This document shows, one piece after another, positions 17,260 to 53,951 of a DNA stretch of 64,000 bases (the stretch's first letter is position 1; the number at the start of each line of letters is the position of its first letter). The position numbers and the translations under genes were made by a program. The notes under the pieces are model-generated. The model was not told the origin of the DNA, searched no databases, and saw only the letters and a list, made by a program, of their open reading frames with translations. The stretch comes from Geosiphon pyriformis uo1 (lineage: Eukaryota > Fungi > Glomeromycota), in the NCBI GenBank assembly GCA_016748015.1, contig JAAOMT010000352.1, positions 767,964 through 831,963 on the forward strand. The letters are read 5' to 3'.

Positions 17260-17451
17260 TGTTACCAGATGAAATTAAAGATATTATTTAGCATAAAATT
17301 ATCTTATAATTCCTATCATTAATTAGCATTGTTTCAAATTATCACTTATTACATTAGCAAAAATGTCCAAAATTATCATTTAATTAATAACCCAAATTGT
17401 ACACAATACAAATGTAACCTAATTACAATGATCAATCATGCAATACCCCGA
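17260..17451 (+). repeat. First 192 bp of the 5' LTR of Gypsy A
   Basis: Near-identical to 26300-26491; similarity stops abruptly after CCCCGA. Confidence 0.92.
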
Positions 17452-18066
17452 TGTTACAGTTTAAGAATTTAGAAAAAAAGAATCATAAAAATAATACAAA
17501 CTATTCAATCATAATATAGCACAGTAATAATCTTAGAAAGGTAATGATTAACATAGTAGCAAACACCATCTCGCAATAGTGGCAAGCACCAGTTCACAAT
17601 AGCAGCCAACACCAACTGGTGATAGCAGCAAACACCAGGTTGAAATATCAAAAAGAAAGTATTTTCTCATAGAACTACAAATATGTATATATACAGTAGT
17701 TTTAATATTGGGAAATAATCAATCAAGTAATAAAAATCATAACTTATCAAGCAATAGATCCAATTTTATCCAACAAACTCCACTTTAAATCATACTTTCA
17801 AATTAAATATCCCAAGAAACCTTTAAAATCAAAAAGAAATGAAAAAGAATATTTAGAACTGAACTATCACAACCCAAAGTATTAAGAAACTTACTTGTAT
17901 TATTTATTGAATGAAACTATCATTCATCAACTGAATCCCTTGGAAGAATAATCCTTGATCAAGATTATTCACGTTGTTACTAATTGATAAAAGCTTTATT
18001 GTGAGAATTAGAAAAGCGCTAAAGACCATTAACATTCTGTGTTTCTAGATTAGAGAAACACATCAG
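17452..18066 (+). mobile_element. Family-B LTR inserted into the 5' LTR of Gypsy A (solo LTR or collapsed element; right end hidden in the gap)
   Basis: Starts TGTTACAGTTTAAGAATTTAG, the reverse complement of the ends of 44247-45122 and 53075-53951; carries the same 23-bp repeats (17553-17644). Confidence 0.9.
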
Positions 18067-18787
18067 NNNNNNNNNNNNNNNNNNNNNNNNNNNNNNNNNN
18101 NNNNNNNNNNNNNNNNNNNNNNNNNNNNNNNNNNNNNNNNNNNNNNNNNNNNNNNNNNNNNNNNNNNNNNNNNNNNNNNNNNNNNNNNNNNNNNNNNNNN
18201 NNNNNNNNNNNNNNNNNNNNNNNNNNNNNNNNNNNNNNNNNNNNNNNNNNNNNNNNNNNNNNNNNNNNNNNNNNNNNNNNNNNNNNNNNNNNNNNNNNNN
18301 NNNNNNNNNNNNNNNNNNNNNNNNNNNNNNNNNNNNNNNNNNNNNNNNNNNNNNNNNNNNNNNNNNNNNNNNNNNNNNNNNNNNNNNNNNNNNNNNNNNN
18401 NNNNNNNNNNNNNNNNNNNNNNNNNNNNNNNNNNNNNNNNNNNNNNNNNNNNNNNNNNNNNNNNNNNNNNNNNNNNNNNNNNNNNNNNNNNNNNNNNNNN
18501 NNNNNNNNNNNNNNNNNNNNNNNNNNNNNNNNNNNNNNNNNNNNNNNNNNNNNNNNNNNNNNNNNNNNNNNNNNNNNNNNNNNNNNNNNNNNNNNNNNNN
18601 NNNNNNNNNNNNNNNNNNNNNNNNNNNNNNNNNNNNNNNNNNNNNNNNNNNNNNNNNNNNNNNNNNNNNNNNNNNNNNNNNNNNNNNNNNNNNNNNNNNN
18701 NNNNNNNNNNNNNNNNNNNNNNNNNNNNNNNNNNNNNNNNNNNNNNNNNNNNNNNNNNNNNNNNNNNNNNNNNNNNNNNNNNNNNNN
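18067..18787. other. Assembly gap (721 N); a second gap of 30 N lies at 22752-22781
   Basis: N runs. The missing LTR-B remainder (~260 bp) plus LTR-A remainder (~780 bp) exceed 721, so the gap size is probably underestimated. Confidence 0.97.
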
Positions 18788-21700
18788 CAACCTTTACAAT
18801 AATTTAGCACACTATTCACAGTTGAGAACTGAAGACCTTAACAGTGAAACACTTGCCACTTACTTTCATGAACTTAATTTTAACATTATCAAATACTGTG
18901 AAGAAACATATCCAGTGCAGTCTCAATACACTATTGATTTTGAATTGGAAACAGAAACAAGCAACAAAGGCAAAAACAAATTGAAGCAATACTCAAAAAC
19001 CACCCCAAATACTCCAACACTACCAAAAACAACTGCCAACCATTTACAAACACCTGAACAAGGAACCAGTTCAAAACTTCCACTTACTATCACATCTTTT
19101 CTAGCTTCACTTGCACAAACACAAACATCTAATTCACCCTTGAATTGATTTGCAAGACCAGAAGATTTTACATCACTCAGAAGTCCCACCAGACAACAAA
19201 AACCCCTTCAAACTAGTTCCAATCTCCTTGATTTTCTAGCTGAAAATCAAAGTGAACACTCTGAGACAGCAGCAAACGAAGAAAACAACTCTGAAATAAC
19301 TGAAGAAGAATCAATAGACAGTGAAAACAAAGAAGATGAAATGACAACATACATCGCAAAAATTCCTGAATTCAATGGAGAAGATATTGAGACCAGTCCC
19401 CAAGAATGGCTTGACCAAGTTATTAAAGCTGGAGATGCAAATGGATAGAATGCTGCCAGAATATTAAGAACAATTCTTTACTTTCTCAAAGGAACAGCAG
19501 GAGAATGGTTTGAAAACTTGGCTGCTCCATTCAATGATTGGAATGCTTTCAAAGTAGCCTTTCTTGAACAGTTCACTGACAATAATACTTCCATTATCCT
19601 TTGTAATCATTTTTGAAATATCAAACAAGAACCCTCTGAATCTGTTATGACTTATATTGGAAAATTCAACAAACTTCTCAGACAAATTTGCCAATTCGAA
19701 ACAAACAATTATTATTCCAATGCTCAAATCTTGGATCAATTTATCACTGATCTAAAAGATAAACTAATTAAAAAGGTTCGTCCACATGCACCAGAAGATT
19801 TAAACTCTGCCATACAGCATGCGAAAAGATATGAAATGGCCATAGAAGAGACCAATTGCACAAAACTTGTAAATTTGACAATTGGAGAAACCAGCTCAGC
19901 AGCTGAGAAAAAAATTGACCAACTCACAAAAAAGGTTGAAAACTATTTCACCAATCAATAACAACAGCAACTCCAAAGATATCAACCACCCCAAAGACAA
20001 AATCAAAATAATTTTGCACCACTTTCCAATAACCAGTCTCAAAATTGCCATTACTGTGGAATCTCTGGCCACTGGAAAAGAGATTGCAGAAAGCTACAAC
20101 GAAGCCAACAAAATAGGAGTAATTAACATTACCCTCTACCACAGCAATCTTATTATCAACCGCTACCACCAGCTTACTATTCACCAAGACCCCAATACCA
20201 AAATAACTATTATCAGCCCACTCCACAGCCAATCCAACAGCAATACCAGCAACTGCTCACACAACATTATCAAGTATCTGCTTGAAGACTGCTTACACAG
20301 AATCAATTTACACCACAAAACCGATACCAAGTAAACAACAATAGAATCAGTTCAAATAACCAATTGGTTTCTCGAAATTCCACTCAACCAAGACCCAACC
20401 ACTACCACACTCAACCCAGTTATTTAACAATGCTAGAAGAACAGGATTTTCATCATACTGCACCCTCGGAAGGTAGAGCTGCAGCACAACAACAAAACTC
20501 TTCCTATACTCTTATCACAATCCCACCAGCCAGAATCACTGAAAATGCTAATCTTTCAGATATATTCCCTTTTGAGTTCGAAGCAAATGAGTCACCATTT
20601 CTGCTTAGCAATACAGCTGCCAATGAACAAAAAGCAATTACAGCTATGTACACTGAAGCAGAAGTCGAAGGAAAAACAATTTGCTTGATCCTAGACAGTG
20701 GATCTGCCGGAAGCATTATCACCTACCAGTTAATGCAACAGTTGAAGAGAAATGTTGACTGACCAGCTCAAACAGTAATCGTCATTGCTGATGGCATGAA
20801 AAAGACTCCAGTAAGAGAAATTGACAATTTTCTATTCACTCTTGATGGAATCACCATTCCAGTTAAAGTTCTTGTAATGGATGCACCTCAGTACCAAGCT
20901 CTCGTCAGAAATGATTGGCTTCAAAAAGCCAATGCTAATCTGAATTAGAAAACACAAGAGTTAACAATCTCCTACCAAAAACAACACGCCCAAGTACCTG
21001 CCACTTGTGGTACATTCAACAAATGCTCTGAAAAAGCCCCAGCTTTTGAATTTGAACCGGAAGAGAAAAAACCCCTCATTGAAACATTCATGGCTCTTGG
21101 ATTAACGTCCAACTGGGCTGATGAAACAGAACAAGAACATTTTACTCCACACTCTGAACCCGAAACCTCTGGATGGAATATCCCTTACTCAAAACCTGAA
21201 CCAAGAAAACAATGCCCCTATATTCCCCTTAAATGTAAGGACTGCCACAAGAAACTATTGTCAATGGGAGTCTGCATTTCACTTGAAGAAGAATATGAAA
21301 ATCATACTTGTTATTACTGCAAAGCTTGTCACAGAAAATGATGGGGCCATCTAATAAAAAAGAGCGGAAAATGGGACAACACTCCTTGTTTGACTTGTGA
21401 AGATATGCTACTGGAAGAATGCAATTAGATTGATGTAGTCATGAGAGGAGGAGTCTGCGATCAGACCTGCCAATATGCTTTATCAATTTCAGAAAAAGTA
21501 AAAAGAGGAACACCCTTTAATGCGGCATACAACAGTGCTCTCAACAAACTTTATCACTACCCCCATAATGCTGAGATGATTTTCGACCTAGCAATAGCAT
21601 TAATTAATAGAGCTACCAAAGAAGATGTTCATCAAATGAAGGAAGCAGAATACATTAAATACACCATAGAATTAGCTGGATTCGATTACGAAGACAAAGT

Positions 21701-24051
21701 AGAAGTCTACCACCAAATTGCAAGTCACACCTATCCAACTCAAGAAGCTCAAATTCAATGATTAGAGCAAATGAACATTAGACTATGTGAAGAATGCATT
21801 ATGCCTTGCAATGAACAGTGGTGTCCTGAATGCTATGCTCTTAGTATCCCCTTGCCCAATGAAAATGATGAGAATGAAATTGAATTTGGAGAACCTGAAG
21901 CAACAGAAGAAATTGAAACAACACCTATCTATCTTATCAAAAATCAGCCTGCCTTACAACTTAAATACTTCAACAACAATAGACAAGGAATAAAACCCGA
22001 AAAAGCACACAAAATTAATGCTGGATATGACCTAAGATATCCAGACAAGGATACTCTTGTTCTCAAACCCAAATCTCTCACAAAAATCAACCTCAAAATT
22101 GCATTCGAAATCCCGCCAGGAGCAATGGTTCAAATTACCTCCTGGTCCTTTCTGGCAAGCAAAGGAATCAATGTCAGAGGAGGAATAATCGATGCTGGAT
22201 ATACTGGAGACATTACAGTGATGCTTCAAAATGAAACTGACAAACCATTCAAGATCGAACATGTTGAAAAAATTGCCCAAGCTATTTACCTACTCTTAAT
22301 CAACATTTTGGGTTTGCAACTAGTCAATCAAAGAGAACAATTAGAAAAAAGCGATAGAGAAACCCAAGGTTTTGGTTCAACTGGACAATTTACAGTTCCA
22401 GTTAACATAGCTCTTAACACACAGAATGAATTTTACCAGATTCTCAGACTTTCACAACCAATTACCATCTCACTCTTTGGAGAACATCCAGAAATCTACA
22501 CTTGCCCAAAGCCAACAACCACACAACAAATTTTTGAGTCCAATGAACAAGTCTGCTTGGAACATAATATTTTGATCCCAAACATTTATATTCCAGAAGG
22601 AACAAAGAAAGTCTGAGTTACTTTTTACAACCCCAATAATTACCCCATAATTTTATTAAATAATTTAGAAATTGGAGTTATTCACAGTAATATATTTCAA
22701 CAAGAATTACCCCAAACAGTTTCCGATTTCTCTGAAATTATTGGACATTCANNNNNNNNNNNNNNNNNNNNNNNNNNNNNNCAAACCAAGAAGACAACAA
22801 GCATATCGAGTTGTTCTAAAAAGCCACCAATTCATCCAAGAAGAAGTACAACGAATGCTTAACAATGGGCTCATCCAACCCTTCATGAGTCCTTGGGCTT
22901 CATCTGTAGTGCTAGTTAAAAAGAAAAATAGAAAGATCCGATTTTGTGTTGACTATCGACAACTCAACAGTGTTACAATTGGAGACGCCTACCCCCTTCC
23001 CTGGATTGATGACATGTTAGATGCCCTTGGAAAATCCAAATACTTTTCAACACTAGATTTAGAAAGTGGTTACTGACAAGTTGCTATGGATCCCAAAGAT
23101 TGCCCCAAAACAGCATTCACCACCCAAGGCGGAAATTACGAGTTCAATGTAATGCCTTTTGGATTATGCAATGCACCAGCAACGTTTCAGAGATTAATGG
23201 ATGTTGTGTACCAAGGACTTTTTTGGAAATCAGTAGTCATTTATCTTGACAATACTGATGTTTATTCTCCATCATTTGAATTACACTTAAAACACCTGCG
23301 AGAAGTTTTTTAATGATTACAAAAAGCAGGACTAAAACTCAATATCAAAAAATGCTACTTTGAAAAAACAAGCCTGGCCTTCTTTGGTCATATCGTTAGT
23401 AAAGATAGAATTAAACCAGATCCTGGAAAAATCAGCGTTGTCAAAAACTTCAAAACTCCTCGAAACACTACAGAATTAAGAGGATTCATAGGATTAGCAT
23501 CCTACTATCAGAAGTTTATCAAAGGATTTTCAGAAATTGCAAAACCCCTCAACCAGCTTACCACCAAAAACATTGAATACAAATGGACTACCGAACACCA
23601 AAAAGCTTTTAAAATTCTCAAGAAAAAACTGACAACAGCTCCAATTCTCACCTACCTGGATTTCAGCAACCGATTTCAACTAGCTACAGATGCTTTATAT
23701 ACTGCCTTTGGTGCTATCTTATCACAACTAGACAACAACGGAAATGAGCAAGTAATTGCTTATGCTAGCAGAACATTAAAACCAGCTGAGAAAAACTACT
23801 CTGCCACAGAACTAGAAACAGCAGCCGTAATTTGGGCTCTATACTACTTCAACCTTTATCTTAGGCCTAAAGAATTTGATATTATCACTGATAATATTAG
23901 ACTCAAATGGCTTCAGAACAAAAATACTCAGCTAAATGCAAAACAAATCTGATGGACAGAATTTCTAGCAAACTATCAATACATAGTACATCACAAACCA
24001 GGAAAACTCCACACCAATGTTAACTGTCTCTCCAGAATGAGACAAGATTAG
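18788..24051 (+). pseudogene. gag-pol: Gypsy A gag-PR-Cys-rich-dUTPase-RT-RNaseH polyprotein, stop-disrupted, ending at TAG 24049-24051
   Basis: Gag IPEFNGED..PQEWL, CHYCGISGHWKRDC; PR LILDSGS; RT RFCVDYRQLN, FSTLDL, MPFGLCNAPATFQ, YLDN; RH LATDA, IAYASR, NYSATELE; ORFs 18822-22616 all in one frame. Confidence 0.92.
21955..22386 (+). other. dut: dUTPase domain within the Gypsy A polyprotein
   Basis: All five trimeric dUTPase motifs recognisable: AGYDL, (R)SFLASKG, GGIIDAGYTG, KIAQ, RETQGFGSTG. Confidence 0.92.
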
Positions 24052-24103
24052 AAAAACACAAAAACCAACACTCAACTTAACCAACCAAAAGAGCCAACAA
24101 ACA

Positions 24104-25489
24104 ATGAATTCGAAAAACTACAATGATCTCAAACAATATTTGGAAACATTAACAATCCCAACAGATTGGTCTCCAGATGAAAAACATTGACTACAATAAC
24201 AAGCCAAATAATATTTTCTATACAACAATATTATTTATTACCAAAATTTCAAAAACCCAGACAAACCACTTAGATTAATACAAGAACAGAAAAAAGAGAC
24301 TATATTATACAACATGCACTCAGATTTTTCATCAGTCTACTTCGGAAAAGACAGCACCACCCAAAGAACACTAGAATACTACTTTTGGCCTCGAATGAGA
24401 AAAGACATTCATGAATATATCAAATTTTGTGATAGTTGTCAAAGAAGAGGAGGAACTTGCCCTACAGAACTTTTAAACCCAATCAAAGTTGGACAGCCTT
24501 TTGACAGAGTTGGTATTGATTTAGTCGGACCACTACCTATCACAAACCAAGGAAACCGCTATATTGCAGTAGCCATAGACTATCTCACCAAATGGCCTGA
24601 AGCCAGAGCCATTTAACGGGCAGATGTAAAATCAGTAGCAAACTTCATCTACGAAGACATTATTTGTAGACATGGATGCCCAATAGAACTTTTATCTGAT
24701 CAAGGAACATATTTCGTGAACAATTTAATCCAGGAAATTTGTGAACAATTTAATGTCAAGAGACCATTATCTTCACCCTACCATCTACAAACAAATGGAC
24801 TGGTAGAATGGTTCAACAGAACATTGTGTGAATCATTAGCCAAAGTTTCAACCAATTTTGAGCAAGAATGGGATCTCTTTATTCCATCAGTGTTACTAAC
24901 ATATAGGATACTAAAACAAGATACCACAAAACACACACCATTTGATTTAACTTACGGAAGGATGGCAACGTTACCAATTAGTTTCACAGTGGAAACATAC
25001 CCAGCACAACCAATCGATGAAAACAATTTTCAAGAAATGCTTCAACGAAGAACCTACACTTTGCTTAGCACATTGGAAGGAAAACAACGAATAGCAGCCA
25101 CCCATATTGAACACTCCCAAGCTCAACAAAAAGAACGGCATGATGACAAATTGCCTCCAGTCACCAATGAATTTAAAATTAGAAACAAAGTTCTCTTACA
25201 CAGAACTAAAGCCGAAAAACAATGGAGTGGAAAATTTGAAAATAAATGGGATGGACCATTCTTTATCCATGAAGTTTTAGGCAATAGATCATACAAGCTA
25301 AGACTTGATGACAAAATTCTAGCAAAAGTTGCACATGGAGATCGTTTAAAACACTATAATTCCAGAAACAATCCTGAACCATTAATTCCACAAATTGGTA
25401 CACATTTCCCTTTAATCAATCCTGAAGACATTCCCTGAAATTTAGAACCAATAGTTGTCATTGAACAGCCTTACAACTTGAACACTTAA
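24104..25489 (+). pseudogene. int: Gypsy A integrase as a separate ORF (HHCC zinc finger, DDE core, GPY/F module; no chromodomain)
   Basis: ATG 24104 MNSKNYNDLKQYLETL; YFWP..CDSCQ; VGIDLVGPLP; LSDQGTYF; QTNGLVEWFNRTL; KWDGPF. Confidence 0.9.
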
Positions 25490-25527
25490 TTTAAATTTAT
25501 TATTATAGTTATCTTCTTATAATTTAG

Positions 25528-26288
25528 AAACAATCTCACAAAAACAAAACAAAAAATAACATAAAAACCCATGCACCAAAAATAATTTTCTTTTATTTCA
25601 AATCGCTTATAATGACTATTCCTTAAAACATTTAACAATTATCCCAAAAACTAATATTAGCTTTAAAAACAATATCCGAATTATCCATTACTGTTACTGG
25701 AAACCACATTAATTATACCCAAACAGAAGTAGTTACAAATTTAGCCCCAAATTCATAAAAATATCACCCGTATAAGAAGAACACAAGAAGTTATACTGGA
25801 ATTCACCTGCCAGAACTTTTAAAACTTGCTTTAAGAGAAAATTTAATGCTCATTCCGATTAGTATTTTACCAAATACTACAATTCAACAAAGACTTCAAC
25901 TGTGTTTCAATGAGGAAAACACTGAATATCCTCCAATCTATAGATATTTTCACATTGGAAAAACACTCTACAAATGAAAACTGGAACTTATAACAGCAAA
26001 CCTCGCAAAAGAAGCTATTCAGAAACAACTCCACAATGAATTCAAGACAACAGCTGAATCAACAAACAGTCGCTACAGGCTCAGAGCTGCTCTTAGACTT
26101 TATGACCTATTCCACACCTGTGAAAATGTACTACAAAACCCAATTTTTCAACCTTTAAAGATACAATACATTGGAAAGCTCACAGAACTGAAATTTCAAC
26201 AATTTTCAGACCAAATTTCTTCAATAATTTTGGATTATTATCTGGAAATAACAAACAGTACTTGGACTTCAATGGAGCTCAGTCTTAA
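25528..26288 (+). pseudogene. Gypsy A ORF3, unknown function (~230-250 aa, first Met 25612)
   Basis: Frame-1 translation with four premature stops, each one C>T away from a sense codon; aligns along its length with Gypsy B ORF3. Confidence 0.75.
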
Positions 26289-26299
26289 GGAGGAGGTTA

Positions 26300-27274
26300 T
26301 GTTACCAGACAAAATTAGAGATATTATTTAGCATAAAATTATCTTATAATTCTTATCATTAATTAGCATTGTTTCAAATTATCACTTATTACATTAGCAA
26401 AAATGTTCAAAATTATCATTTAATTAATAATCCAAATTGTACACAACACAAATATAACCTAATTGCGATGATCAATCATGCAATATCCCGAACTATGTAA
26501 CATTCAAAAGTTCACCGAAATTTATAGAAATTCACCGAAATAATTGATAGTTCACCGAAATATCTAATAGTTCACAGAAATAACTTGTAGTTCGCCGAAA
26601 TGTATCTTTAGTTCAGCGAAATTGTAGAAAATAGTAAAGTTAAAGTTCATAGAATAGTGTTACAACAAGTTATATAAAAGAAGAGCTTTTCTCTTCGAGA
26701 AAATGTATCTTACTTTAGATTTTAACAATTAGAATTATCTTTTACACACAAAAACGAAATAAATATCAAATAATTTGAAAAATCAAATCCTAAATTATTT
26801 CACTTTTGAAATTAACTAATTCCTACAAAACAGTTTGAAATTGATTAGCTACCAATTTCAGTAAACTGTTAGTGACTCCAGGCCTGGATAAAAAATGTTT
26901 CCCTTGACAGAAATTTTATTTCTTTTACATTTCTTTTATTTTTCTTTTATTTTCTTATTACAATTATTAGAGTAGCCTACAGATGAGATTCCTGTAGAAG
27001 AGTTGACTTTCACAGCAAAGTAACTACACATTTTTAGTGAGCTTCCAGACAAGCAATTCTTGGGAAAGAGTTGATATTTACTACAATGTAACTACATAAA
27101 AACAACTGGCAAAGAATTGGCCATTCCATTCATAAGTCCAGCAGCTCAAATTATAGGAGATAATTTGAGGATAAATTCAGTTATCGGAGGTTTAAACACT
27201 TCCCATAATCATAAATTAACAGCATTACAACAAACATACAAGAGCTAAAAAGAGACCAAAAACCTCCAGTAACA
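26300..27274 (+). repeat. 3' LTR of Gypsy A (975 bp)
   Basis: Follows the PPT; TG...CA ends; matches 17260-17451; TATATAAA at ~26671. Confidence 0.93.
26510..26622 (+). repeat. Six-unit array of TTCACCGAAAT with 20-bp period in LTR A
   Basis: Motif at 26511, 26531, 26551, 26571, 26591 and 26612 with variable spacers. Confidence 0.9.
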
Positions 27275-30200
27275 CTGACTAGTAAAGCCAGCAAGCATAT
27301 AAGAGTCAGGATGCCATACTTTAACCATAGCATTTCAGTCCACACATCCAATCAGATCACTCAAAACAACATCTTGGCCAGGACCAGCCTTCCAATAAGC
27401 ATGACAAATAAACCAAAACATGTTCCTAACAAAATGATGGGCATTGCCAAAAATAGTCATATTCTCAGCTATCAAAAAATTTTTACACACTCTCACAGGC
27501 AAAGAAAACTTAAAACACGTAGTATAACCAGCAGCAGCATCAGCCTCCATATTATCCATAACTTCAGAATGGCTCTTGATCTTCACCTATCTTACATTAA
27601 GATTTTTATTTCTAATTAAATTAAAAATGTGACATCTCTCTATCCAGCATGGAACACAAAAGTCCAACATAGCCAAAGACATTTTGGATATACACATATC
27701 AATAACAGTCTGGCTGTTAAGATACAATACTACTATACAAGAGGATGGGATGCACTCCAATACCAGAGTGACCACCTGCAACTCAGATAAAGTAGAAAAC
27801 AATAGACCTCAAACTTTAACACCAACACTCATATTTACAGAAAGAAAATATGCAGTCATGCTGTCAGCAATATTAGCAGTTCTAGCATCTCTTAACAAAC
27901 CATTTGTGTAGACATCAAACAAACCAGACCATATTTCATGCAAACCACTTTGAATATCAGAGAACTCCATAGAATTCAGAACATCCAGCTCAGGTGGAAG
28001 ACCACTCTTAGCAGGAACAACCAAAAAAGAGTCTATATCCAACAAAAACTTTGTAACAGTCACAAACCAGAAAGGAACAAGGCCTTTTAGATCCAATTTT
28101 TTCCAATAATAAAAGGTCTTCCAATCCATTACTCTACTCTTTTTATCAAACAGTCTATTACCAAAAGTAATACCAAAATGCTTCAATGAACAAACCGAGC
28201 CAAAGTAAAGAGTATTTCCCAATACAGAAGATATAGGAAATACACCAGAACTGTAAAAAGCACTTGACAAGTTGTTAGCTAAAGACAGCCCATTATCCAA
28301 GAAAATCTTAACCACACCAGCCAGAAAATTGTTTACAGAACTAACACATAACTTAACAAAGAACTGTAAGAGGTTCAGTGGAGTCCAACCCAGAATCTGC
28401 AAATCCAAAAATCTATGATTGAATAAACACCCAAAAATGCCAGAAGCATTGGAAAATAAAACCACAGCAGCCGATTTACATTCTGACTGCAATTGTTCAA
28501 AAAACTTCAATCCATATAACAAGGAGTAATATAATACATTGACTAAAAAATCATGTGGCAAATGTGCTTTAGACCTAAGACCTTTCCAAACCAAAGCATC
28601 CCACTTGCAACAAACCCCCAATAAAACAAAACCAAACTGGGTCCTGTAGCTAACAATGGACTGCAGAACAGCCAAAACCAAATAAGAGAACTGCTTGTCA
28701 GCAATAATCTTCTTTAGTACCACATTAACAAAAAAGTGCATATTAGAATGAGCTTTGGTTACACTTAGCTTAAACAACTCTTTAATAGACAGAAAAATAC
28801 TCAAGTATCTATAAATCTCACTCTTTCTAGCTATTGAAATTGGCTGACCACTTATGCTCAAAGAAGCCATTTTAACATCTTGATTAATAGAAATGGCCAC
28901 AGTTTTTTTATTGTTAATAGAAATGTTATTAATTGTGAAAAACTCACTAGCAATATTCAGAGCATACTGCATTGATGCTTAACAATTACTAATTCAAATT
29001 GTATTATCTACAAATGCACTTGCAGCAAAAAAGGAAGATAACCTGCCACCAGCTTCAATTCTACCAGTTCTTGCAACAAACTTAATGTCAATTCAATAAC
29101 CACACAAATGCTTATGTCTCTTGACTTTACATAGAAGAGAATCATAGAAGATTCTTCAGAGAAAAGGTGAAAAGACCTCATCCTGATCTAAGCCGTCACA
29201 AATCCTGTATCCATTAGTAAGACCAAAATTGGTCATAACTCTATTAATCCTGTTACCATGTATGCCACTAAAGAATCTGATGAACCTATCACACATTTTG
29301 ATCTGATATAAACTAGTCTTCAAGTAATGCCAACTTACAGAATTATAGGTCTTGCGTATATTCTAAAGAACCAACCAAAGTTCACAATCTTTTTCAAGAG
29401 CATTTTTAACAACTAAACCAACTGCAAACACAGGGGATTGGATAGATGTATTCTTCAAAATGAAAAAGTTATCACCACAAAGAACACCAAACTTGCTATA
29501 TGCAAAAGAGATCCTATCAGAAAGAATCTTAGAGAGAATCTTTCTGGCAGTCTTGATCAAAGCTATAGGCTATGTATTTGTAAGAACTCCATCCTAATTG
29601 TAAGGTTTAAGAATCATTGAAACCCAAGCCCTTCTCCATAAAACAAGAACACTACTAATCAACAAACATGCATTCAACAATCTCAAAAGATATTCCAACA
29701 CTCCTTTGCTACCATGTTTTCAAAGTTCATTAGGTATACTGGACAAGCCAGCAGCTTTACCATCAGACAGACCATTGACAACCAAGATTAACTCACTTAA
29801 ACTGATAGCACTCATCATATTAGAAAAGACACAATCTTGCACATAATTCAATAGAGCATATTGATGAGCCCAGAGGTCAGGCACTACCAAAGGCACTGTT
29901 TGTTTCCTAGTCCAATCCTCTATAATCCTATCCACATTGAGCTTCACTTCCTCAGGTTCCAAAATTAAATCATCATTCACCATTAAGTAATCCAGAACTA
30001 CTTTGCAAAAAAGCTAATCCAAAATGCTTCTGATTATGCTACCTTTGTCAGAACAGAAATTTTCCATGTGCTTTGAGATTGCCAATCTAATAAAAGTCTC
30101 CTTAGCCAATTTTGACTCATACATCTTAGATCTTCTGTATTCTTTATGAACCAACAACAAATATCCAAGAACCACTTCAGACTTCTCACCCAAGCCAACC

Positions 30201-33200: not shown

Positions 33201-34324
33201 ACTTTTTCTGGAAATTTGAAATGAATGAAAAAAAAAAGTTTCCAATTTTTATTATTATTTACTTTTAAATAAATTTTTAATTAATTAAAATAAATAAAAA
33301 ATAATATTAAAACTAAAGTATTATAATAAAATTATTAACAAATTTATTTGTATTTATTTATTAAATAATATTGTTATTTATTAACTAAATTTTTTAAAAG
33401 AATAATTTTTGATCAAATTTATTTATATTATTATTAATTAAATTAAAATTTTACTATAAAATAAAAAAAATGCTTAATATTTTGTATTTTTAAATTAAAA
33501 AAACATTTTAGATAATTGTAAAAATAGTTTTTAAAAAAAATTTTAACAGAAGCAAATAAATTTTTAAAAAAAAAATATAAATATAAAATAATAATTAAAA
33601 CTTAAAAAAAAACTTATATTATAATATTAATAAAAAAATTTTATTAATAGTTATAATCAAAAACTATTGTTTTAATGCTCTTAGAATTTTTAAATAAATA
33701 TTTTTAGTAAGATAAATATTAATTTATAAAATTTATATAATAAATAATTTATTGTGATTTTTATTAAAAAAAACTTTACTATATAATAAATATTAAATTT
33801 TTAATTATTAAAGTTATTTAAATTTTTTTTAAATAAAATAATTGTTATTTTTTTTGTTTTTATTGCTATTATTATATATATATATATTTTTATAATACGA
33901 AATTTTAGTAATTTTTACATTTTTCTAATTTATTATTGGAATTTTTGGTATTTTTAAAATTTTTAAAATTTTTAATATTATATTATTTATTAATTTCGAA
34001 TATATAATTGGCTAAATTATATTATATTTAACTATTAATTATTTTTTAATTATTTTATAAATAACAATATATTGCTTTTATTAAAATTATTAATATTAAT
34101 TTTTTATAATACTTGTCTAATAAAGAAATTTTTTTTAATATTATGTTAAATTTTTAAACTTTTAAATAATTATTTTTATTTATAATATAAAAACTTTTTT
34201 CTCTCTTTCGTCCCAAATTCCTGAAAAAGAGTCAAATTTTGAAAGTAGTTTTTTCTGTTTTTGCATACTGTCTTCCAATATTTCACAAGAATCAAACTCT
34301 TTTGTTGTTGGTCCGGCTGCCACT

Positions 34325-44246: not shown

Positions 44247-45122
44247 TGTTACGGGATGGTTTTCTTGGTATATTTAATTACTGATATCCCGTTTTAATTG
44301 CAATCAGTCTCTTGTGAGTTTCTCAATTCTATTTGTGTGATAATATCACTTGTTATACTGAAGGCTTTCTCTTTAATGTTGCAATTTAAGTTATTTCTCA
44401 ATTCCTGATTATTGTGTGTGTTTATGTACTCCTTCCCAAAGGCTGAACTAAAATCTACCCACTGTCTGGAGTTTTCTCTAAGACTATTTTTGCAATTGCC
44501 TAATGTGTTTCTCTAATTTAGAAACATGAAATGTTAATGGCCTTTAGCGCTTTTCCTAATTCTTACAATAAAGCTTTTATCAATTAGTAACAACATGAAT
44601 AATTTTGATCAGGGATTATTCTTCCAAGAGATTCAACTAATGAATGATAATTTCATTTAATAATTAACACAAGTGAGTTTTTTACTACTTTGGGGTTGTG
44701 ATAATTCAGTTTTAAATATTTTTTTTTATTTTTTTTTGATTTAAAAGTTTTTTGGGATATTTAATTTTAAAGGTATGATTTAAAGTGAAGTTTGTTGAAT
44801 AAATTGGATTTATTGCTTAATAAGTTATGATTTTTATTACTTGATTGGCTTTTTTCAATATTAAAGCTACTGTATATATATATGTTTGTAGTTCTACAAG
44901 AAAACACATTGTAATACTTTCTTTTTGATATTTCAATCTGGTGTTTGCTGCTATCACCAGTTGGTGTTGGCTGCTATTGTGAACTGGTGCTTGCCACTAT
45001 TGCGAGATGGTGTTTACTACTATGTTAATCATTACTTTTCTAAGATTATTACTGTGCTATATTATGATTGAATAGTTTATATTATTTTTATGATTCTTTT
45101 GCTAAATTCTTAAACCATAATA
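44247..45122 (-). repeat. 3' LTR of Gypsy B
   Basis: About 90% identical to 53075-53951 over the stretch compared; adjacent PPT GAAAGGAGGGGATAA on the minus strand. Confidence 0.95.
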
Positions 45123-45135
45123 TTATCCCCTCCTT

Positions 45136-45878
45136 TCAAGATTGAGCTCTGTTGAAATCAAAATTAATTTCTTCATTAAATTCTAAGTTACTATAATAGT
45201 TCAATACTGTGTTATTAATTTGTTGTTGTAATTCTTAAAATTGCGAGTTGATAAGTCGTCCAATACTGTTGGTTGTTATTATGTTCATGGTTGAGTCTAA
45301 CAATAGTTTGTGACAGTTTTCAAATGTTTTGAAAATTCTGTAAACTGTTTTTAAATGGAATATAGTGTTGGTTTTACCAATAAAAAGTTCTAATAGTTGG
45401 ATAGTTGTTTTGTCAAACACTCTAGTTGAGTTTTTTGAGTATAATGTTTGTATGTTCAAGTGCTTTCCTAGTTGATAATAACAGTAGTTAATTGGAAATT
45501 TCGTTTTCAAGTTGCTAAATGTGTTTGGTGTTAATTCACTTATTTCTATTTCTTCTATTATTAATGTATTGCCCAATGCTATTTCTAATTTTTCAATAAC
45601 TTTGTTAATAAATTTGTTGTTATGTTTGGTAATATTATATGGTTCAAAATTATGTTTTTTTCTTGTTTTTGGATTTTCTATTGTTTTTTTATGTATGTTA
45701 TTTTGGAGCTATTAACTGTGATTTCCAGATCGGATTTTAATTATTGTAAGCTTTCAACTAATTGTTGAGTTATATTGTTGATGTTTTCTGGAATAAGTAT
45801 CATTGTTTGAATTTTGACTGCTATTTTGGAATCTTTTGCATGTGTTTTTATGATTGTTAAATCATTTTTGCTGTGATC
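45136..45878 (-). pseudogene. Gypsy B ORF3, unknown function (first Met 45803)
   Basis: MILIPENINNITQQL..LEITVNSSKITY..(frameshift)..NFEPY..LEIALGNTL..YCYYQLGKHL..IGRLINSQF..LNYY..DFNRAQS*. Confidence 0.75.
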
Positions 45879-45887
45879 TAAGATTAA

Positions 45888-47266
45888 TTATCTTTTTGAA
45901 TAATGTTCAATTAAAACTATTGGTTCTAAATCTCATAGAATTTGTTCTGGTAGAATTAAAGGTAATTGTGTTCCAATTCTGGGTGTTTTTGTTGTTATTA
46001 CTGGTTTACTGTAATAGAATTTCAGCCAGTTATCATGTGCTGCTTTTTTTAATATTTTATCATTTAGTCTTAGCTTGTATGCTCCATTTTCAAGTATTTC
46101 ATGAATATAAAATGGTCCATCTCACTTGTGATCAAATTTTCCACTCCATTGTTTTTCTATTTTTGTACAATGCAACAATACTTTATCTCCAATTTTGTAG
46201 CTAATTATATTATTTGGTAACTGGTTATTATGTCTCATTTTTTGTTGTTTTTGTGATTGTTCAATATTTTGTGCTGTTTTTCTTCTTTTGTTTTCTAAAG
46301 TTTTCATTAATTCGTATGTTCTTCTAAGTAGTGTTTTCTGGAATGTTGCTTCAGTAATAGTGTCACTTGGATAAATTAGGATAGTAAGTTCAACTGGTAA
46401 TGTGGCTTTTTTTCCATAAACTAGTTTAAATAGTGTGAATTGTGTAGTATCTTGTTTTACTGTTCTATATACTAGTAGTACTGCTGGTATGAACAAATCC
46501 CATTTTTTTCATGTTTATTACTAATTTTCACTAGTAATTTGCATAATGTGTGATTAAATCTTTCAACTAATCTATTTGTTTGTGGATGGTATGATGATGA
46601 CAGTGGTTGCTTGATTCCAAATTTTTGGCTAAGTTCTTTTAAGGTGTTGTTTACAAAGTATGTGTCTTGATCTGATAGCAATTCTTGTGGATATTCATGC
46701 TGACAAATTAAGTCTTTATGTACAAATTGAGCTATGGAAATAGCATCAGCTGTTTTAATAGCTCTAGCTTCTGGCTATTTGATAAGATAGTCTACAGCTA
46801 CTGCAATATAACAGTTGTTTCTTGTTATTATTGGTAAGAGTCCAACTAAATCAATTCCAATTCTGTTAAATGGCTGTCCAACTTTTATTGGTCTTAATAA
46901 TTCTGTTGTTTTTGCTCTTCCTCTTCATTGGCATGGGTCACAATTTTTTATGTATTGGATTATGTCTAAACTCATTTTTGGCCAATAGTAACGGCTAGTT
47001 ACATGTTGGATAGTTGCTGTTTTTCTAAAGTGGTTTGAATGAATATCTGAGTGCATGTTAAATAAGATAGTTTCTTTTTTATTTGTGATTATAACTCTTA
47101 ATGGATTATCTGGATTTTGTCGATTCCAGTAATAAAGTATGTAATTTTGGATGAAATAGTGTTTTGTTAATTTTTGGAGCTTAATTAGCTCTTTTACTGG
47201 TATTTCTTTATCTATTTGTAGTGTTTCCAAGTATTGGCTGAGGTTTTTGTAAAGATGGTTGTTCAT
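45888..47266 (-). pseudogene. int: Gypsy B integrase as a separate ORF
   Basis: ATG 47266 MNNHLYKNLSQYLETL; HSDIHSNHF..YYWP..CDPCQ; IGIDLVG; LSDQDTYF; VERFNHTL; C-terminal LEPIVLIE shared with A. Confidence 0.9.
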
Positions 47267-47295
47267 TGTTGTTGTGGCAGGTGGGTTGGTGATTT

Positions 47296-50200
47296 TTATG
47301 TGTGTTTCATTTTTAACAAACAGTCAACATTAGCATTTTTGGTACCTTTTTTGTATTTGATAATATAATTATATAGTGCTAATGTTTGTGAGCATCTGGC
47401 GTATTTTCCTTTTAGCACTTTTTTGTTATTTAACCAGATCAAACCTCTATAATCTGTGGTAATCTCAAAGAGTTGGTACCATAAATATGTGTCAAAGTGA
47501 ACACAACTCCAGACTACTGCTAAGCATTCAAGTTCGTGTGCTGTATAGTTTTGTTCTGCTGTACTGAGACTTCTGCTGGCATAAACAATTACACGTTCTC
47601 TTCCATTATTATCTTTTTGTAACAGAATGGCTCCAAGTCCAGTTCTAGAGGCATCTGTGGCCAAAATAAATTTCTTGTTGAAATTCGGATAGATCATTAT
47701 TGGTAATTCAATAAGCTTTTGTCTAAAGTACTCAAAAGCTTTTTGTTGTGCTTCAGTCCATTCAAATTTCACATTTTTGGATAGTAGGTAATTAAGGGGT
47801 TTAATGATGTTTGAAAAGTTTTCTACAAAGTGGCAGTAGTAAGATGTGAGTTCTAAAAAGCTTTTAACTTCTAAAACGTTTTGAAGTACTGGAAAATTTT
47901 TTACTTTGTCTATTTTTGATAGATCTGGTTTTATTCCATCTTTTCCAATTACATGTCCTAAAAATGCTAGCTCATTTTTTCCAAAGAAACATTTTTCTAG
48001 ATTTAGTTTAAGTCCAGCGTGTCTTAATCTCTCAAAAACTTGTTGTAAATATTGGAGATGATCCATGAATTTTGACGAAAAAACATTTGTATCATCCAAG
48101 TAGACAACAATGGATTGTTACAAGATTTCAGAGTAAATTATGTCCATTAGTTTTTGGAATGTTGCAGGAGTGTTTATCAATCCAAATGGCATTACATTGA
48201 ACTTATAATTGCCATTTTGTGTTGTGAATGCTGTTTTATGCCTGTCCTTTGGGTCTATTTCCACTTGCCAGTATCCACTGGTCAAGTCTAGTGTAGAAAA
48301 CCATTTTGCTCCTCCAAAAACATTGAAGATTTTGTTGATTAATGGTATTGGGTATGAATTTTTGGTTGTTTTGCTGTTTAGTTTGCAATAGTTGATGCAA
48401 AATCTAATTTTTCCATTCTTTTTCCTTACTAAAACAACTGGTGAGAACCATAGGCTCATTGATGGTTGGATTATTTCTTTTTTCAACATGTTTTGGACTT
48501 CTTTTCTGATAAAATTATGTTCTATTGGTGGGACACAGTAAGTGCATTGTTTTTTAGGTCTAGTATCTCCAGTGGGGATTTGGTGTTGAACCAAGTTGAT
48601 TCTTCCAAATTCGCCATTTTGTGAAAATATATCAGAGTATTTTAAAATTAGTGCTTTTAATTATCACTGTTGGTCAGGATCCATTGTTCTAATGTTTAAT
48701 TTGGCCAATTCTTCTGGCATAAATTGATAGCATTCCAATGGTTGTTGCTAATTTATTGAAGTGAGTTCACAGTAAAGGGCAATTTCTGGAAAATTTAAAA
48801 TTTCTTGTGGTGTTGACATGTTTTCTAGCTCTGTTCTGAGGTATCCAATGATGGTATCTTCTGGAATGTAGATGGGTTCTTCTGTAGTGTTTGTGATAGG
48901 AATTTTTATCTATTGAGCTTTATCAGCTGGAATAAAAAAGTTAGTAAGTCCTATGAGAAACTGTTGGCAAGTTTTTGAATAAGGCTCAAATATTAGGTCT
49001 TTTTCTTTAATTGTTCTTTTTATTCTTATTTCTGATTTTCCATATGATAGAAGTGTGATGAACTGCTCAGTTTTAATTACTTTGCCTTTTTCCTCTATTG
49101 TTTCAGCAAAATTTGCTTCAATTCTTTTTCCTGTTGATCCGAAACCAAAAGTTCCTCTCGTTGTTTGTAACAATTCCTCACAATTTTCTACTGGCACAAA
49201 TTTCCCAATTTTTGCCAATGGTAAGAAAATTGCTTGTGTAATCTTTTCCTTAGATTCAATGGTATAAGGCTTTTCTGAATTGTTCTGTAGCAAAACCATC
49301 AAATTTCCAGTGTATCTGAAGTCAATTACTCCTCTTTGAATGCTTATTTCTTTTTTCACAAGACTTGATTATGATGCTATTTGAATCATTATTCCTGGCA
49401 GAATTTCAACCACTATTTTTAGGTCGATTTTGGTGATGCTCCTGGGTGGTAATGTTGTGGATTTGTCTTCCAGATAATATAGATCAAATCCAGCATCAGT
49501 TGAATGGGCTCTTTCGGGTATTATTCCTAAGTGCCCATTGTCAAAGTATTGGATGTTGATTACCTGTTTTAGGTTAGTATAGGCTATAAATTTTTCTGAC
49601 TCAGGACCTTTAAGTGAGTCTTGTTGATTTATTGATTGATTTTAAGACTGCTGATTCTCAATTTCTATTTTTCTTTCTAAGTCCCATTTGTCTTGACACT
49701 CTTCACAGCACTGATTTTGGCATGGGATAAGACAGTTTTCACAGAGGTAAGTGTTGATTTGGGCGAGATATTGTTCTTACTTTTGTTAAGTAGGGCATAG
49801 TTGTTGGTAGTAGTTCTGGAATTTGTTCACTGAATCAAACATGTTGTAACTGGTGACTTTGTCGGCTACTTCGGCTGACTCTTTCCAACATTGTATTTCT
49901 TTGGTGGTTTTTTCTCTTACTTTGGTCTGTGCAGTGTTGTACAACTTGTCCTCATTGTGTGGGTAATGCTGTAGTCTTTTTAACGCTCTGTTGAATGCTG
50001 CTTTGAATGGCATTCCTCCACTTACCCAATCACAGATGAGAATTGTGTATTGGCAAGTTGCATTATATGTTCCTCTTCTGCCTAGTATGTCATTTTAGTT
50101 ACACCCTCTTGGTAATGGTTCTCCACAAGCAAGGCATGGTTCCTCATCCCATTTTTTGTGTCTTTCTGGGTAATCATATTTTTCTTTGTTACAACGGTTA

Positions 50201-53000
50201 CAATAGTAGTGGATGGGGTTTCTTGGGTCTTCGTCTGGTGCACTGCACACAGTCATAGACAAGAGTTTTTTCTTACAAACTGAGCATTCTAGCTTTGGTC
50301 TGCATTGCTGGTGGTTTCTTTGTGAACTTATCTGGTTTTATTCAGATTTTTTTTTGCTGGTCCACATTGGTACAGCTGGTAGTTCTGTTCTTTGGTCATT
50401 AGCCCAAGAAAGCTGATAGATTTCGATGACTGATAGTACTGAATTTTTCTTAAATTTGAAGATAGGTCTTTGGTTGGTGCTGGGTTTTTGGAAGTGGCCA
50501 CAGGTGGCTAGAATTCTGGCCTGGTGGCTATTATAATTGATCAGAAGCTCTTGGGTGGTCCAGTCTAGAGTGGCGTTGGCTTTTGTTAGCCAATCATTCC
50601 TTATTAATACTTGATATTGTGTAGCATCTATTACTAATACTTTTGTAGGTATTACTATGCCGTTAATTTCGAAAGGAAATAAGTTGATTTTGCTATGAGG
50701 CAGCTTTGTACTTCTATTGGCTGTTATAATTTGGAACATCACAGCATGATTAACTTTGAAACCCAGTTGGTTTATTAGTTGAAGCATTATGATGCTTTTA
50801 GTGAATCCACTATCTAAGATAAGTTTAATTGGGGTATTGTTTACAGTGGCTTCCATATACATAGCAGTAATTGGGCATTTTTTGTCCAATGCTGCTTCAC
50901 TGAACATAGTCTTGTTTTTTTTTAATTCAAAAGGAAAAATAGCTGCGAGGCTGCTATCTTTGGTAACAACTGCTAGTGGTATTGTTTGGCTCAATTTGTT
51001 GAAGGAATTTTTGGTTTTGTTTATGTTTCTATCATCATTGTTTCCGATAATCAGATTTTCTGGTATATTAAGATAAGTTTGTTGATAATTTTGGTAGTTT
51101 GGATTGGTTTGCTGACTGGTTCCAGCATGATTTGGATTCCTTTGGACCAACACGTTCTGGTTCCACATGAGCTGATTTCAGAGCTTGGAACACCAATTCG
51201 GGTTGGCTATCATGGGCTGTTGCTGGTAAGTTCTTTGATTTTGATACATAGTGGAATATTGGTGTGATATTGGCGTGTACTGGTTTCTGGACATTTGGGG
51301 TGGCACATAATAATTATTTTTGCATGCTTCCTGCATCATTCGCATTTGACATTGACTAATCAAATGTCCTACACATTTACAAAAATGGCAGGCACATGTT
51401 TCTGTTCTGAATTCCTGGTGCGATAAGCAAATATTTCAACTGTCACTGACTTTCTGGCTGTGTCTTTGGGGTGGTTGGTATGTATTTCTTCTTGGATCCA
51501 GGATGAGATAACTTTCTATTTTCTTAGAGAGTTCCTCCCCTAATTGTGTTATTTTTTTCTCTAATGTTTCTGTCTTATTTTCTTCCATTACCATGTTAAC
51601 CATTTGACTATGGTTAGCTTCTTTCTCAGCCAATTCAAGGGCTTTGGTGAGCATAACGGCTTCTGGTAAGGAATTAGGGTGGGCAGGGCATATTCTTCCT
51701 AAAATGCTGCTTTTTAATCCTCTAATAAACTGATTTAAAACCTAAGAATCAGTGTAGTATCCTTGTTTAATCGCTTCAATCTGATGGTAAATTTGATTGA
51801 ATCAAGCAAGATATTGGGTAACAGTTTCATTGGTACTTTGCTTGATAGTATTGAATTCATTCTGTAGTTGGATTATGGCGTTTGGATCGCTAAAATACTC
51901 TAGAAGTGCATTTTTAAATTCGGCAAAGCTCGTGGGTTTTGTTTCCAGGCTTTAATACCATGAGTTAACTGTGCTTTTCAGGAAGAAAGATAATGTTTGA
52001 ATTGCTCTTTGGTTATTCCAATTATTTGCTTGGATGGTTTTTTGCGCTTCTTTGAATCATGTGTACATGTCTGTTTCTTCTTCTTTTCCTGAGAAATCTG
52101 TTAGTCTTGCGATGTATAGTGTGGCTATTTTATTGCTGTTTTCTGCTGGTGGGCTTATTGGTCTAAGAAGAGGTGGGATGATATTTCCTTGAGTGTTCCT
52201 AAAGGTGGCTTCTCTTATATTCAGTTCTTTCTCTTGATTATGAGTTTCTTGGTTTTTGGACTGGCTGCTTGTTTCAGTGACTGGTCTTGTGCTTGTTTTT
52301 TCACTGGTTTCTTCAGATTCCGATTCAGACTCCTCTTAACAGTTTTCAAACTCCACTCTGAATTTTGGTTGAAAAAAGGGTTTTTGGAATAGCAATGAAT
52401 ATCTTTTTGTAATTGGTATATCTTCCTAATTGTGTTGTTTGAACTTCTCAATATAATTAGAAGTTCTCGGTGTTTGTGAGATTAATATGGATGATGATGC
52501 AGCTTCTAATGGAAGTTGGATTTTATTATCTGGGGAAAAATGATAAAATCTTTCTTCTGGTGAATGAATGTGTTGTTTTTTTACTGATTGCGTGATGTTT
52601 TTCTTAGGTGTTTGGACAGGTGTTTCTAATTTTTACTGATTTTCTTTATGATTAATTTCTGGATTGTAGATGTGTTCTCTGGTGTTCTTTGTGGATATTG
52701 GAAAATTTTTGTTGGTGTATTGTTCTATTTCGCAATGAATTTTGACAATAGTCATGGTTATTACTGCTATTTCTTTGGTAGTGTATTGTGATAATTCTCT
52801 ATACAATCCAAGTTTTGTGTTATGTAATTCTTCTTTCTTTTCTATATGATAATTTATTCTGGCATTGATATAATAAGTGAGGGCAGATTTTGCTAGACAA
52901 TATTCTTTTGGTAATTCAAGATTACTTTGATGTTATGTGTAAATAGCATGGCAGAATTCAAGAACAATAAGGTTAAGAGTTTTTGTTGCCACTTTTTGTT
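47296..53000 (-). pseudogene. gag-pol: Gypsy B gag-PR-Cys-rich-dUTPase-RT-RNaseH polyprotein in one frame; start approximate
   Basis: ORFs starting 51654, 51363, 51168, 50013, 49359, 48594 and 48099 share a frame; CHFCKCVGHLISQC; LILDSG; YLDD; LATDAS; stop TAA 47296-47298. Confidence 0.92.
49130..49560 (-). other. dut: dUTPase domain within the Gypsy B polyprotein
   Basis: DAGFDL, SSLVKK, GVIDFRYTG, KITQ, RGTFGFGSTG. Confidence 0.92.
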
Positions 53001-53074: not shown

Positions 53075-53951
53075 TGTTACAGGATAGTTTTCTTGATATA
53101 TTTAATTGCCGATATCTCATTTTAATTGCAATTAGTCTCTCGTGAGTTTCTCAATTCTATTTGTGTGATAATATCACTTGTTATACTAAAGGCTTTCTCT
53201 TTAATGTTGCAATCTAAGTTATTTCTCAATTCCTGATTGTTGTGTGTGTTTATGTACTCCTTTTCAAAGGCTGAACTGAAATCTATCCACTGTCTGAGGT
53301 TTTTTCTGAGGCTATCTTTGCAATTGCCTGATGTGTTTTTCTAATCTAGAAACACAGAATGTTAATGGCCTTTAGTGCTTTTTCTAATTCTTACAATAAA
53401 GCTTTTATTAATTAGTAACAACATGAATAATCTTGATCAAGGATTATTCTTCCAAGAGATTTAACTAATGAATGATAGTTTCATTCAATAATTAACACAA
53501 ATAAGTTTCTTACTACTTTGGAGTTGTGATAATTCAGTTTTAAATATTCTTTTTCATTTCTTTTTGATTTAAAGGTTTCTTGGAATATTTAATTTTTAAA
53601 GGTATGATTTAAAGTAGAGTTTGTTGAATAAATTGGATCTATTGCTTGATAAGTTATGATTTTTATTATTTGATTGGCTTTTCTCAATATTAAAGCTACT
53701 GTATATATATATGTTTGTAATTCTATGAGAAAACACATTGTAATACTTTCTTTTTGATATTTCAACCTAGTGTTTGCTGCTATCACCAGTTGGTGTTGGC
53801 TGCTATTGTGAACTGGTGCTTGCCACTATTACAAGATAGTATTTGCTACTATGTTAATCATTACTTTTCTAAGATTATTACTGCACTATATTATGATTGA
53901 ATAGTTTATATTATTTTTATGATTCTTTTGCTAAATTCTTAAATTGTAATA
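53075..53951 (-). repeat. 5' LTR of Gypsy B
   Basis: Direct repeat of 44247-45122; 23-bp tandem units near 53760-53850. Confidence 0.95.

Follow-up and report, generated by a model that had tools for sequence, protein, structure and literature searches.

The Tas protein of foamy viruses binds elements in the internal promoter and in the LTR's U3 part, and has an acidic activation domain (accessible text of PMC3798896). The VANC proteins, which are MAIN-derived, dicot-specific and encoded by VANDAL Mutator DNA transposons, are sequence-specific anti-silencing factors that show fast co-evolution of protein and motif (accessible text of PMC13547354). Plant LTR elements have extra ORFs in the slot considered here (accessible text of PMC7264820). 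Among fungi, the Gypsy elements PosPlaTy3-5 and Tmt1 bear a dUTPase, and an "add. ORF" is recorded for some fungal elements (accessible text of PMC2864245).

We analysed a 64,000 nucleotide stretch of the Geosiphon pyriformis genome (contig JAAOMT010000352.1; "the window") that holds two Ty3/Gypsy elements, A and B, each with a third open reading frame (ORF3) between integrase and polypurine tract (PPT). Like Tas/Bel1, ORF3 is a small accessory gene beside the 3′ LTR, and by analogy the likeness may extend to a DNA-binding part, an acidic activation part, and response elements in U3 and upstream of the gene (compared with the accessible text of PMC3798896). Unlike Tas/Bel1, it lies in an env-less fungal Ty3/Gypsy element and is known here from sequence and a predicted model. 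A candidate counterpart of the Tas response element, common to the LTR and the spacer upstream of the gene, is present in the metagenomic element L001 (below), not in A or B, and Tas/Bel1 is not among the Pfam (25 of 29 families), BFVD or PDB matches listed. ORF3 may work like Tas, by analogy, but appears not to be a Tas member. As with VANC, it is a transposon-coded accessory factor, and the CpG-rich array of the A LTR suggests a VANC-type model by analogy; it differs from VANC, as described in the accessible text of PMC13547354, in belonging to a fungal retrotransposon and in having no similarity that we could see, and VANC is absent among the fold-search matches listed for ORF3. With the plant extra ORFs it shares slot, orientation, conservation across copies and a mostly unknown function; those ORFs often have transmembrane segments, whereas ORF3 has none and is a different family (accessible text of PMC7264820). 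What is new is the ORF3 protein family; this kind of slot is already known. No description of ORF3 appears in the literature searched, which includes the accessible text of PMC11952901, 10.1101/2021.03.30.436303 and PMC10224137; the Geosiphon genome paper and Repbase lie outside that search.

Organization of the host elements

In the AT-rich window, LINEs and LTR elements are stacked together. Element A spans 17260–27274 (+) and element B 53951–44247 (−), both inserted within LINEs (Table 1); the LINE interrupted by A continues across the insertion site. Ty3/Gypsy (Metaviridae) features are present, namely TG...CA LTR ends, the order gag-PR-RT-RH-IN and a PPT. The LTRs of A and B had been called unrelated, and indeed blastn gives no match between them. 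Because the B-family LTR nested in the A 5′ LTR enters a 721-base N gap, the gap may hide a collapsed element.

For comparison we use L001, a 3.7-kb metagenomic contig with RT-RH, integrase, a 316-nt spacer, an intact 230-aa ORF3, PPT and LTR. In all three elements (A, B and L001) the integrase is its own ORF, which opens with a new ATG past the RNase H stop and a short A/C-rich spacer (junctions at 24049–24106 (+) in A, about 47300–47260 (−) in B and 772–801 in L001), and it is not the C-terminal part of one Pol polyprotein. No chromodomain, the mark of a chromovirus, matched at E ≤ 0.01 in the integrases of L001 and A. A dUTPase lies between protease and RT in both families (about 21996–22385 (+) and 49560–49126 (−); Pfam E 1e-19). 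This arrangement is that of PosPlaTy3-5 and Tmt1, from which A and B differ in having a separate integrase ORF with no chromodomain match (compared with the accessible text of PMC2864245). The carrier is a dUTPase-bearing Ty3/Gypsy lineage of Glomeromycotina-type fungi.

Several minor features of these elements were also seen. A Cys-rich stretch precedes the dUTPase in A and B. Target duplications are CTGA/CTGA at 17256–17259 and 27275–27278 (A), TTGG/TCGG at 53955–53952 and 44246–44243 (−), and CCGA at 17448–17451; these four-base duplications have a CpG, either present or possibly decayed, at their centre (CpG o/e in the window is 0.24) and resemble the CCGG/CCGT preference of Ginger1. Fragments related to the B LTR, and older, lie at 33268–33539 (71%) and 16353–16435 (82%). 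Inside the A 3′ LTR, about 570 bases from its start, is a primer-binding-site-like stretch (26868–26890), and from this internal position the A LTR border looks as if it had moved.

Table 1. Coordinates of features in the window
Feature	Position	Strand	Remarks
Start of A 5′ LTR	17260..17451	+	94% identical to 3′ LTR; cut by nested B-family LTR and assembly gap
B-family LTR nested in A 5′ LTR	17452..18066	+	runs into N gap 18067–18787
Decayed gag, protease, dUTPase, reverse transcriptase, RNase H of A	19344..24051	+	Pfam; stop at 24049–24051
Integrase of A	24104..25489	+	separate ORF behind RNase H stop
ORF3 of A	25612..26331	+	239 codons, one frame, 4 in-frame stops; decayed copy
Conserved DNA box and polypurine tract of A	26268..26299	+	core GAGCTCARTHTTRA at 26275–26288
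3′ LTR of A	26300..27274	+	975 bp, TGTTAC...GTAACA, then target duplication CTGA
Six TTC-N3-GAA palindromes, A 3′ LTR	26511..26620	+	20–21 bp spacing, upstream of TATA-like box at 26671
3′ LTR of B	44247..45122	−	LTRs of B 92% alike
Four GCAAACACCA-like motifs, B 3′ LTR (copy count of the array 4–5)	about 45017–44941	−	23-bp spacing, upstream of TATA-like box
Same box and polypurine tract of B	45123..45156	−	core 45149–45136
ORF3 of B	45136..45803	−	frameshift near 45680, two stops in frame; the reading frame closes with DFNRAQS and stop
Decayed gag, protease, dUTPase, RT-RNase H, separate integrase ORF of B	45880..52130	−	collinear with A (tblastx)
5′ LTR of B	53075..53951	−	

ORF3 is a conserved gene between integrase and PPT

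The first-pass annotation had proposed collinear, homologous ORFs between integrase and PPT in A and B, and had named the lack of a significant protein alignment beforehand as an outcome that would speak against it. The local alignment of A ORF3 with the main part of B scores 125 (shuffles 36.6 ± 6.3; 0 of 2000 as high; z = 14), and that of the N-terminal piece scores 64 (shuffles 27.2 ± 4.4; 0 of 2000; z = 8). When the six frames of the window are searched with A ORF3, B is the top non-self match (127 and 64; next 52), and the matching sequence blocks that had been listed for the pair are all present; their nucleotides give no blastn match. Stops are few in the reading frame of the gene, 5 per 240 codons in A vs. 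13–20 in the other frames, and 2 per 178 codons in the main part of B vs. 10–21.

The ends of the gene required correction. A had been thought to need one frameshift and to end at 26288. Like its intact relatives, it reads through the PPT in a single frame and 30 nt into the 3′ LTR, to its true end at 26331, so that the last 10 codons and the stop fall inside the LTR. It is B that carries a frameshift, which sits in an A-run. Intact 239-aa relatives of A ORF3 exist, with identity up to 90%. DFNGAQS in A and DFNRAQS in B, each followed by a stop, had been taken as a shared protein end; an ELSLEE-type tail is present in 94 of the 145 A-type proteins compared, and an FxGAQ ending in only two, both apparently spliced gene models. 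Since most of the A-type relatives compared end in this tail and the frame of A runs on to 26331, the correspondence is a match of DNA and not of protein. It is out of frame for the whole A clade, and DFNGAQS was rejected as a protein motif common to A and B. ORF3 is nonetheless a real, conserved gene in a fixed slot, behind a stand-alone integrase ORF and before the PPT.

Relatives and rate of change

A search with A ORF3 gave 199 G. pyriformis protein matches, of which the closest are hypothetical proteins with up to 90–92% identity, and an A+B profile search gave 57 representatives at E ≤ 0.001 among 1.84 billion. Our compared set of 183 proteins is made up of 120 of the 199 A matches plus the B, profile and further-search matches. 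It comprises six Geosiphon families (A1, 103 proteins; A2, 42; B, 9; C, 9; D, 2; E, 9) and three metagenomic groups with 2, 2 and 5 members; the sources of 20 of the compared proteins were traced. No named relative outside Geosiphon was found among the matches of the ORF3 searches. Some 200 Geosiphon "hypothetical proteins" are hereby identified as retrotransposon ORF3 products, many of them fused to unrelated exons through gene prediction. The gene models P0014, P0030, P0089, P0123–P0128, P0131, P0165 and P0166 fuse ORF3 to LTR, LINE or gag by predicted splicing, and such fusions are likely annotation artefacts. The C-terminal piece of the integrase is joined to ORF3 in 15 of the 183 gene models (families A1, A2, B, C and E).

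A tree of 18 ORF3 cores separates A1, A2 and the metagenomic proteins from B, C, D and E with support of 100/100, under a long-branch warning from the tool. The split tracks the tail: the first clade reads the box of conserved DNA before the PPT as ELSLEE and the second reads it as FxGAQ. Within the first clade, the P0183 group stops before the ELSLEE tail. In the ESM Atlas the core is nearest to Mucoromycota protein clusters (0.94 and 0.93), which we take as a lead only. The core may also resemble a helical domain widespread in Glomeromycotina, a likeness on which these Atlas matches only touch.

No other gene of the element changes as fast as ORF3, with 27% identity between A and B, compared to 37% for gag, 48% for protease and dUTPase, 54% for RT-RH and 55–58% for integrase. 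In protein-guided alignments its pairwise dN/dS is about 0.64 (A-B), 0.26 (A-L001) and 0.38 (B-L001), and that of the integrase is 0.30, 0.17 and 0.28, respectively; these are rough values, given nearly saturated synonymous sites, the decay of A and B and the bias of local alignment towards low dN. A dN/dS near 1 had been named as evidence against selection, and the rough values of 0.26–0.64 lie below it. Identity is highest at codon position 2 (0.61 vs. 0.36–0.47). The frame, start and slot of ORF3 are kept across lineages at 20–37% identity, and this is stronger evidence for selection than dN/dS. Together, the frame kept at near-saturated synonymous sites and the rough dN/dS support the earlier suggestion of an accessory protein under selection.

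Predicted structure and comparison with known families

An AlphaFold2 model (37 sequences; pLDDT 75, pTM 0.62) predicts a soluble, mostly helical protein. It has a low-confidence N-terminus (helix 5–18 and hairpin 24–37), a disordered basic linker (39–64) and a confident helical core (residues 90–190) with a long last C-terminal helix; pLDDT is 84–94 across residues 81–210. A single-sequence model of P0157 gave pLDDT 42. Conserved core positions are Y110, Y112, G116, N152, A159, R162, Y164, F167 and N/Q185. In the helix pair 133–168, K/R exceed D/E in all nine family representatives. Of 10 N-terminal halves, 7 hold R/K/H-x(2-5)-PY in the linker, although one of the seven belongs to a mis-spliced model; P0183, P0174 and P0176 have no PY motif. 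The R/K-x-PY motif is a putative nuclear import signal of the PY type. The most acidic 25-residue window is the tail in 6 of 9 representatives and is tied in one; it is elsewhere in B and the P0183 group. The earlier view that ORF3 has neither signal peptide nor TM helix and is no classical env holds in a hydropathy scan of eight ORF3 proteins: the best 19-residue hydropathy is 0.27–1.29 in all eight, with no transmembrane-like stretch, and the N-terminal 10-residue mean is at most 1.27. ORF3 proteins hold 0–3 cysteines.

None of the searches gave a described relative. ORF3 matches no Pfam family among the matches listed (25 of 29 families), and these include no described Gypsy domain, a match to which had been named as an outcome that would remove the novelty. 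Against PHROGs the best E is 0.0012 for one member, with nothing consistent and named; a PDB sequence search gave a best E of 0.013, and the phage tblastn and viral contig searches gave no match. Foldseek against PDB and BFVD returned no row at E ≤ 0.001 for the model, whose N-terminal module was barely covered. A VIA fold search reached Z 5.3 (rmsd 2.5 over 68 residues) and another search Z 5.0. Helical DNA-binding domains are among the top rows (SigmaF fragment 1l0o_C, Z 4.8, rmsd 2.3 over 57; Orc6; CHD1 C-terminal), but for this predicted model the top rows are within the range of chance for helical proteins. ORF3 defines a protein family without a Pfam model or solved relative. DUF1016_N, the YhcG N-terminal domain, was considered but not supported: it scores 12.9 bits against a curated cut-off of 32.8, and its hhalign probability of 0.8%, from a narrow profile of 15 sequences, equals the best of 30 column shuffles.

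LTR motif arrays and the spacer upstream of ORF3

The 3′ LTRs of A and B each hold a motif array (Table 1), and the L001 LTR has four TTGCCCT-like units upstream of a TATA-like box. Shuffled sequences have at most 3 clustered copies in 199 of 200 cases. CpG o/e is 1.9 in the A array and 0.32 in the remainder of that LTR, and a clustered CpG-rich motif is found in the A LTR only.

The L001 spacer that precedes ORF3 holds two further copies of TTGCCCT, which lie 21 bp from each other and upstream of a TATA-like box; the 2139 coding bases upstream have none. The spacer and LTR of L001 share 20 words (2.8 ± 2.3 expected; none of 1000 shuffles reached this count), and the LTR start has an 11-base word in common with the spacer; sharing of words between this spacer and the LTRs of the other families was not seen. 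The corresponding counts are 1 vs. 1.8 for A (720 of 1000 shuffles as high) and 7 vs. 3.6 for B (137 of 1000), so the LTR motif recurs upstream of ORF3 in one element of the three. One TTC-N3-GAA site lies 180 bp upstream of A ORF3, at a P of about 0.03 for a site chosen after the fact.

Possible functions of ORF3

The basic PY linker, the basic helix pair, the mostly acidic tail, the fast divergence and the family-specific arrays point to an LTR activator or anti-silencer. We propose, tentatively and at somewhat less than even confidence, that ORF3 is the element's own nuclear DNA-binding regulator, activating or un-silencing its own LTR. An internal promoter or a subgenomic RNA would serve for its expression, and the protein would be imported through its R/K-x-PY linker; the basic helix pair (133–167) would read the LTR motif array, and the acidic tail would recruit the transcription machinery. 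Such a task for the tail would account for the tolerance of either frame of the pre-PPT box. The divergence of protein and LTR motif would go hand in hand, so that each family would have a private switch. Among the functions offered by the first-pass annotation, a DNA-binding regulator or anti-silencing factor is the best fit to the predicted protein anatomy, and nothing supports the movement or packaging factor that it also named. Several points count against the self-regulator. Among small basic helical proteins there are also binders of RNA or of other proteins, and LTRs commonly carry motif arrays that serve as host transcription-factor sites, for which no element-coded protein is needed. 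Furthermore, the LTR motif lies upstream of ORF3 in L001 but in neither A nor B, the acidity of the protein peaks outside the tail in B and the P0183 group, and P0183, P0174 and P0176 have no PY.

Other functions can be weighed against the same features. Caulimovirus TAV/P6 is a translation re-initiation factor, and an element whose integrase stands behind a stop, an A/C-rich spacer and a new ATG needs a way to translate its downstream ORFs. ORF3 travels with this split-integrase layout in all three elements and might enable a stand-alone integrase to be made from polycistronic RNA in the same manner; we think this unlikely, as the pre-integrase spacer of 25–55 nt is probably short enough for unaided re-initiation by the host, a nuclear role better suits the PY-type linker and acidic tail, and no caulimovirus family is among the Pfam or BFVD matches listed. 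About equally unlikely is a cofactor of integration that, substituting for the missing chromodomain, would tie the integrase complex to chromatin that is methylated or has CpG. The integrases without a chromodomain match, the duplications at present or possibly decayed CpG in a window poor in CpG, and the position of both A and B within LINEs would suit such a tether. It would be based on three insertions only, however, and Ginger1 transposases, with a related integrase and CCGG/CCGT duplications, have no such ORF, so that the integrase alone can explain a CpG preference (accessible text of PMC2836005).

An RNA-binding protein that suppresses RNA silencing or acts as a nucleic-acid chaperone at the pre-PPT box would agree with the basic helical core, with the conservation of the box as DNA in both reading frames, and with the methylation of TEs and the TE-derived small RNAs of AM fungi (accessible text of 10.1101/2021.03.30.436303). 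Nothing links the protein to the box, however, which may simply serve plus-strand priming, and a generic suppressor has no need of family-specific divergence; we consider this role improbable, slightly more so than the two preceding ones. An env-like or cell-to-cell movement protein is suggested by the env slot and sense orientation, but with a best 19-residue mean of 1.29, no hydrophobic segment, 0–3 cysteines and a predicted fold that is soluble and helical, it is very improbable. Hardly any weight can be given to the idea that ORF3 was captured from a host, or is a passenger, and does nothing for the element: its core does resemble the Mucoromycota clusters of the ESM Atlas, but frame, start and slot have been kept across lineages at near-saturated synonymous sites.

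Returning to the self-encoded regulator, the lineage as a whole may be organized like a complex retrovirus, with a dUTPase-bearing gag-pol, a separately translated integrase, and a family-specific DNA-binding transactivator of new fold that reads tandem motifs of its own LTR and internal promoter; this wider picture is possible but more doubtful. Ty3/Gypsy elements are usually thought to depend on host transcription factors. If ORF3 is a sequence-specific regulator, a fungal retrotransposon would have arrived by convergence at a device of the Tas or VANC kind, the ORF3-motif pairs would be orthogonal switches, and dozens of families would escape CpG silencing independently. Such switches would help explain the LTR expansion in Geosiphon, an expansion that is strong in Geosiphonaceae (accessible text of PMC11952901). 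Natural intact copies of ORF3 make the self-activator idea directly testable.

A conserved DNA box before the PPT

The box that adjoins the PPT in A and B (Table 1) holds a GAGCTC palindrome and is kept across the ORF3 clades, although they read it in different frames. The possibility that it contains a splice acceptor was set aside, since the CAG of B and L001 is absent at that place in A. Since the box is kept in A, B and L001 while the two clades read different frames, it is a cis signal conserved at the DNA level, for which priming, RNA dimerization and a protein site are candidate roles. The exact 14-base core occurs in the window at A and B only, and the box of L001 lies at 3084–3115 of that contig.
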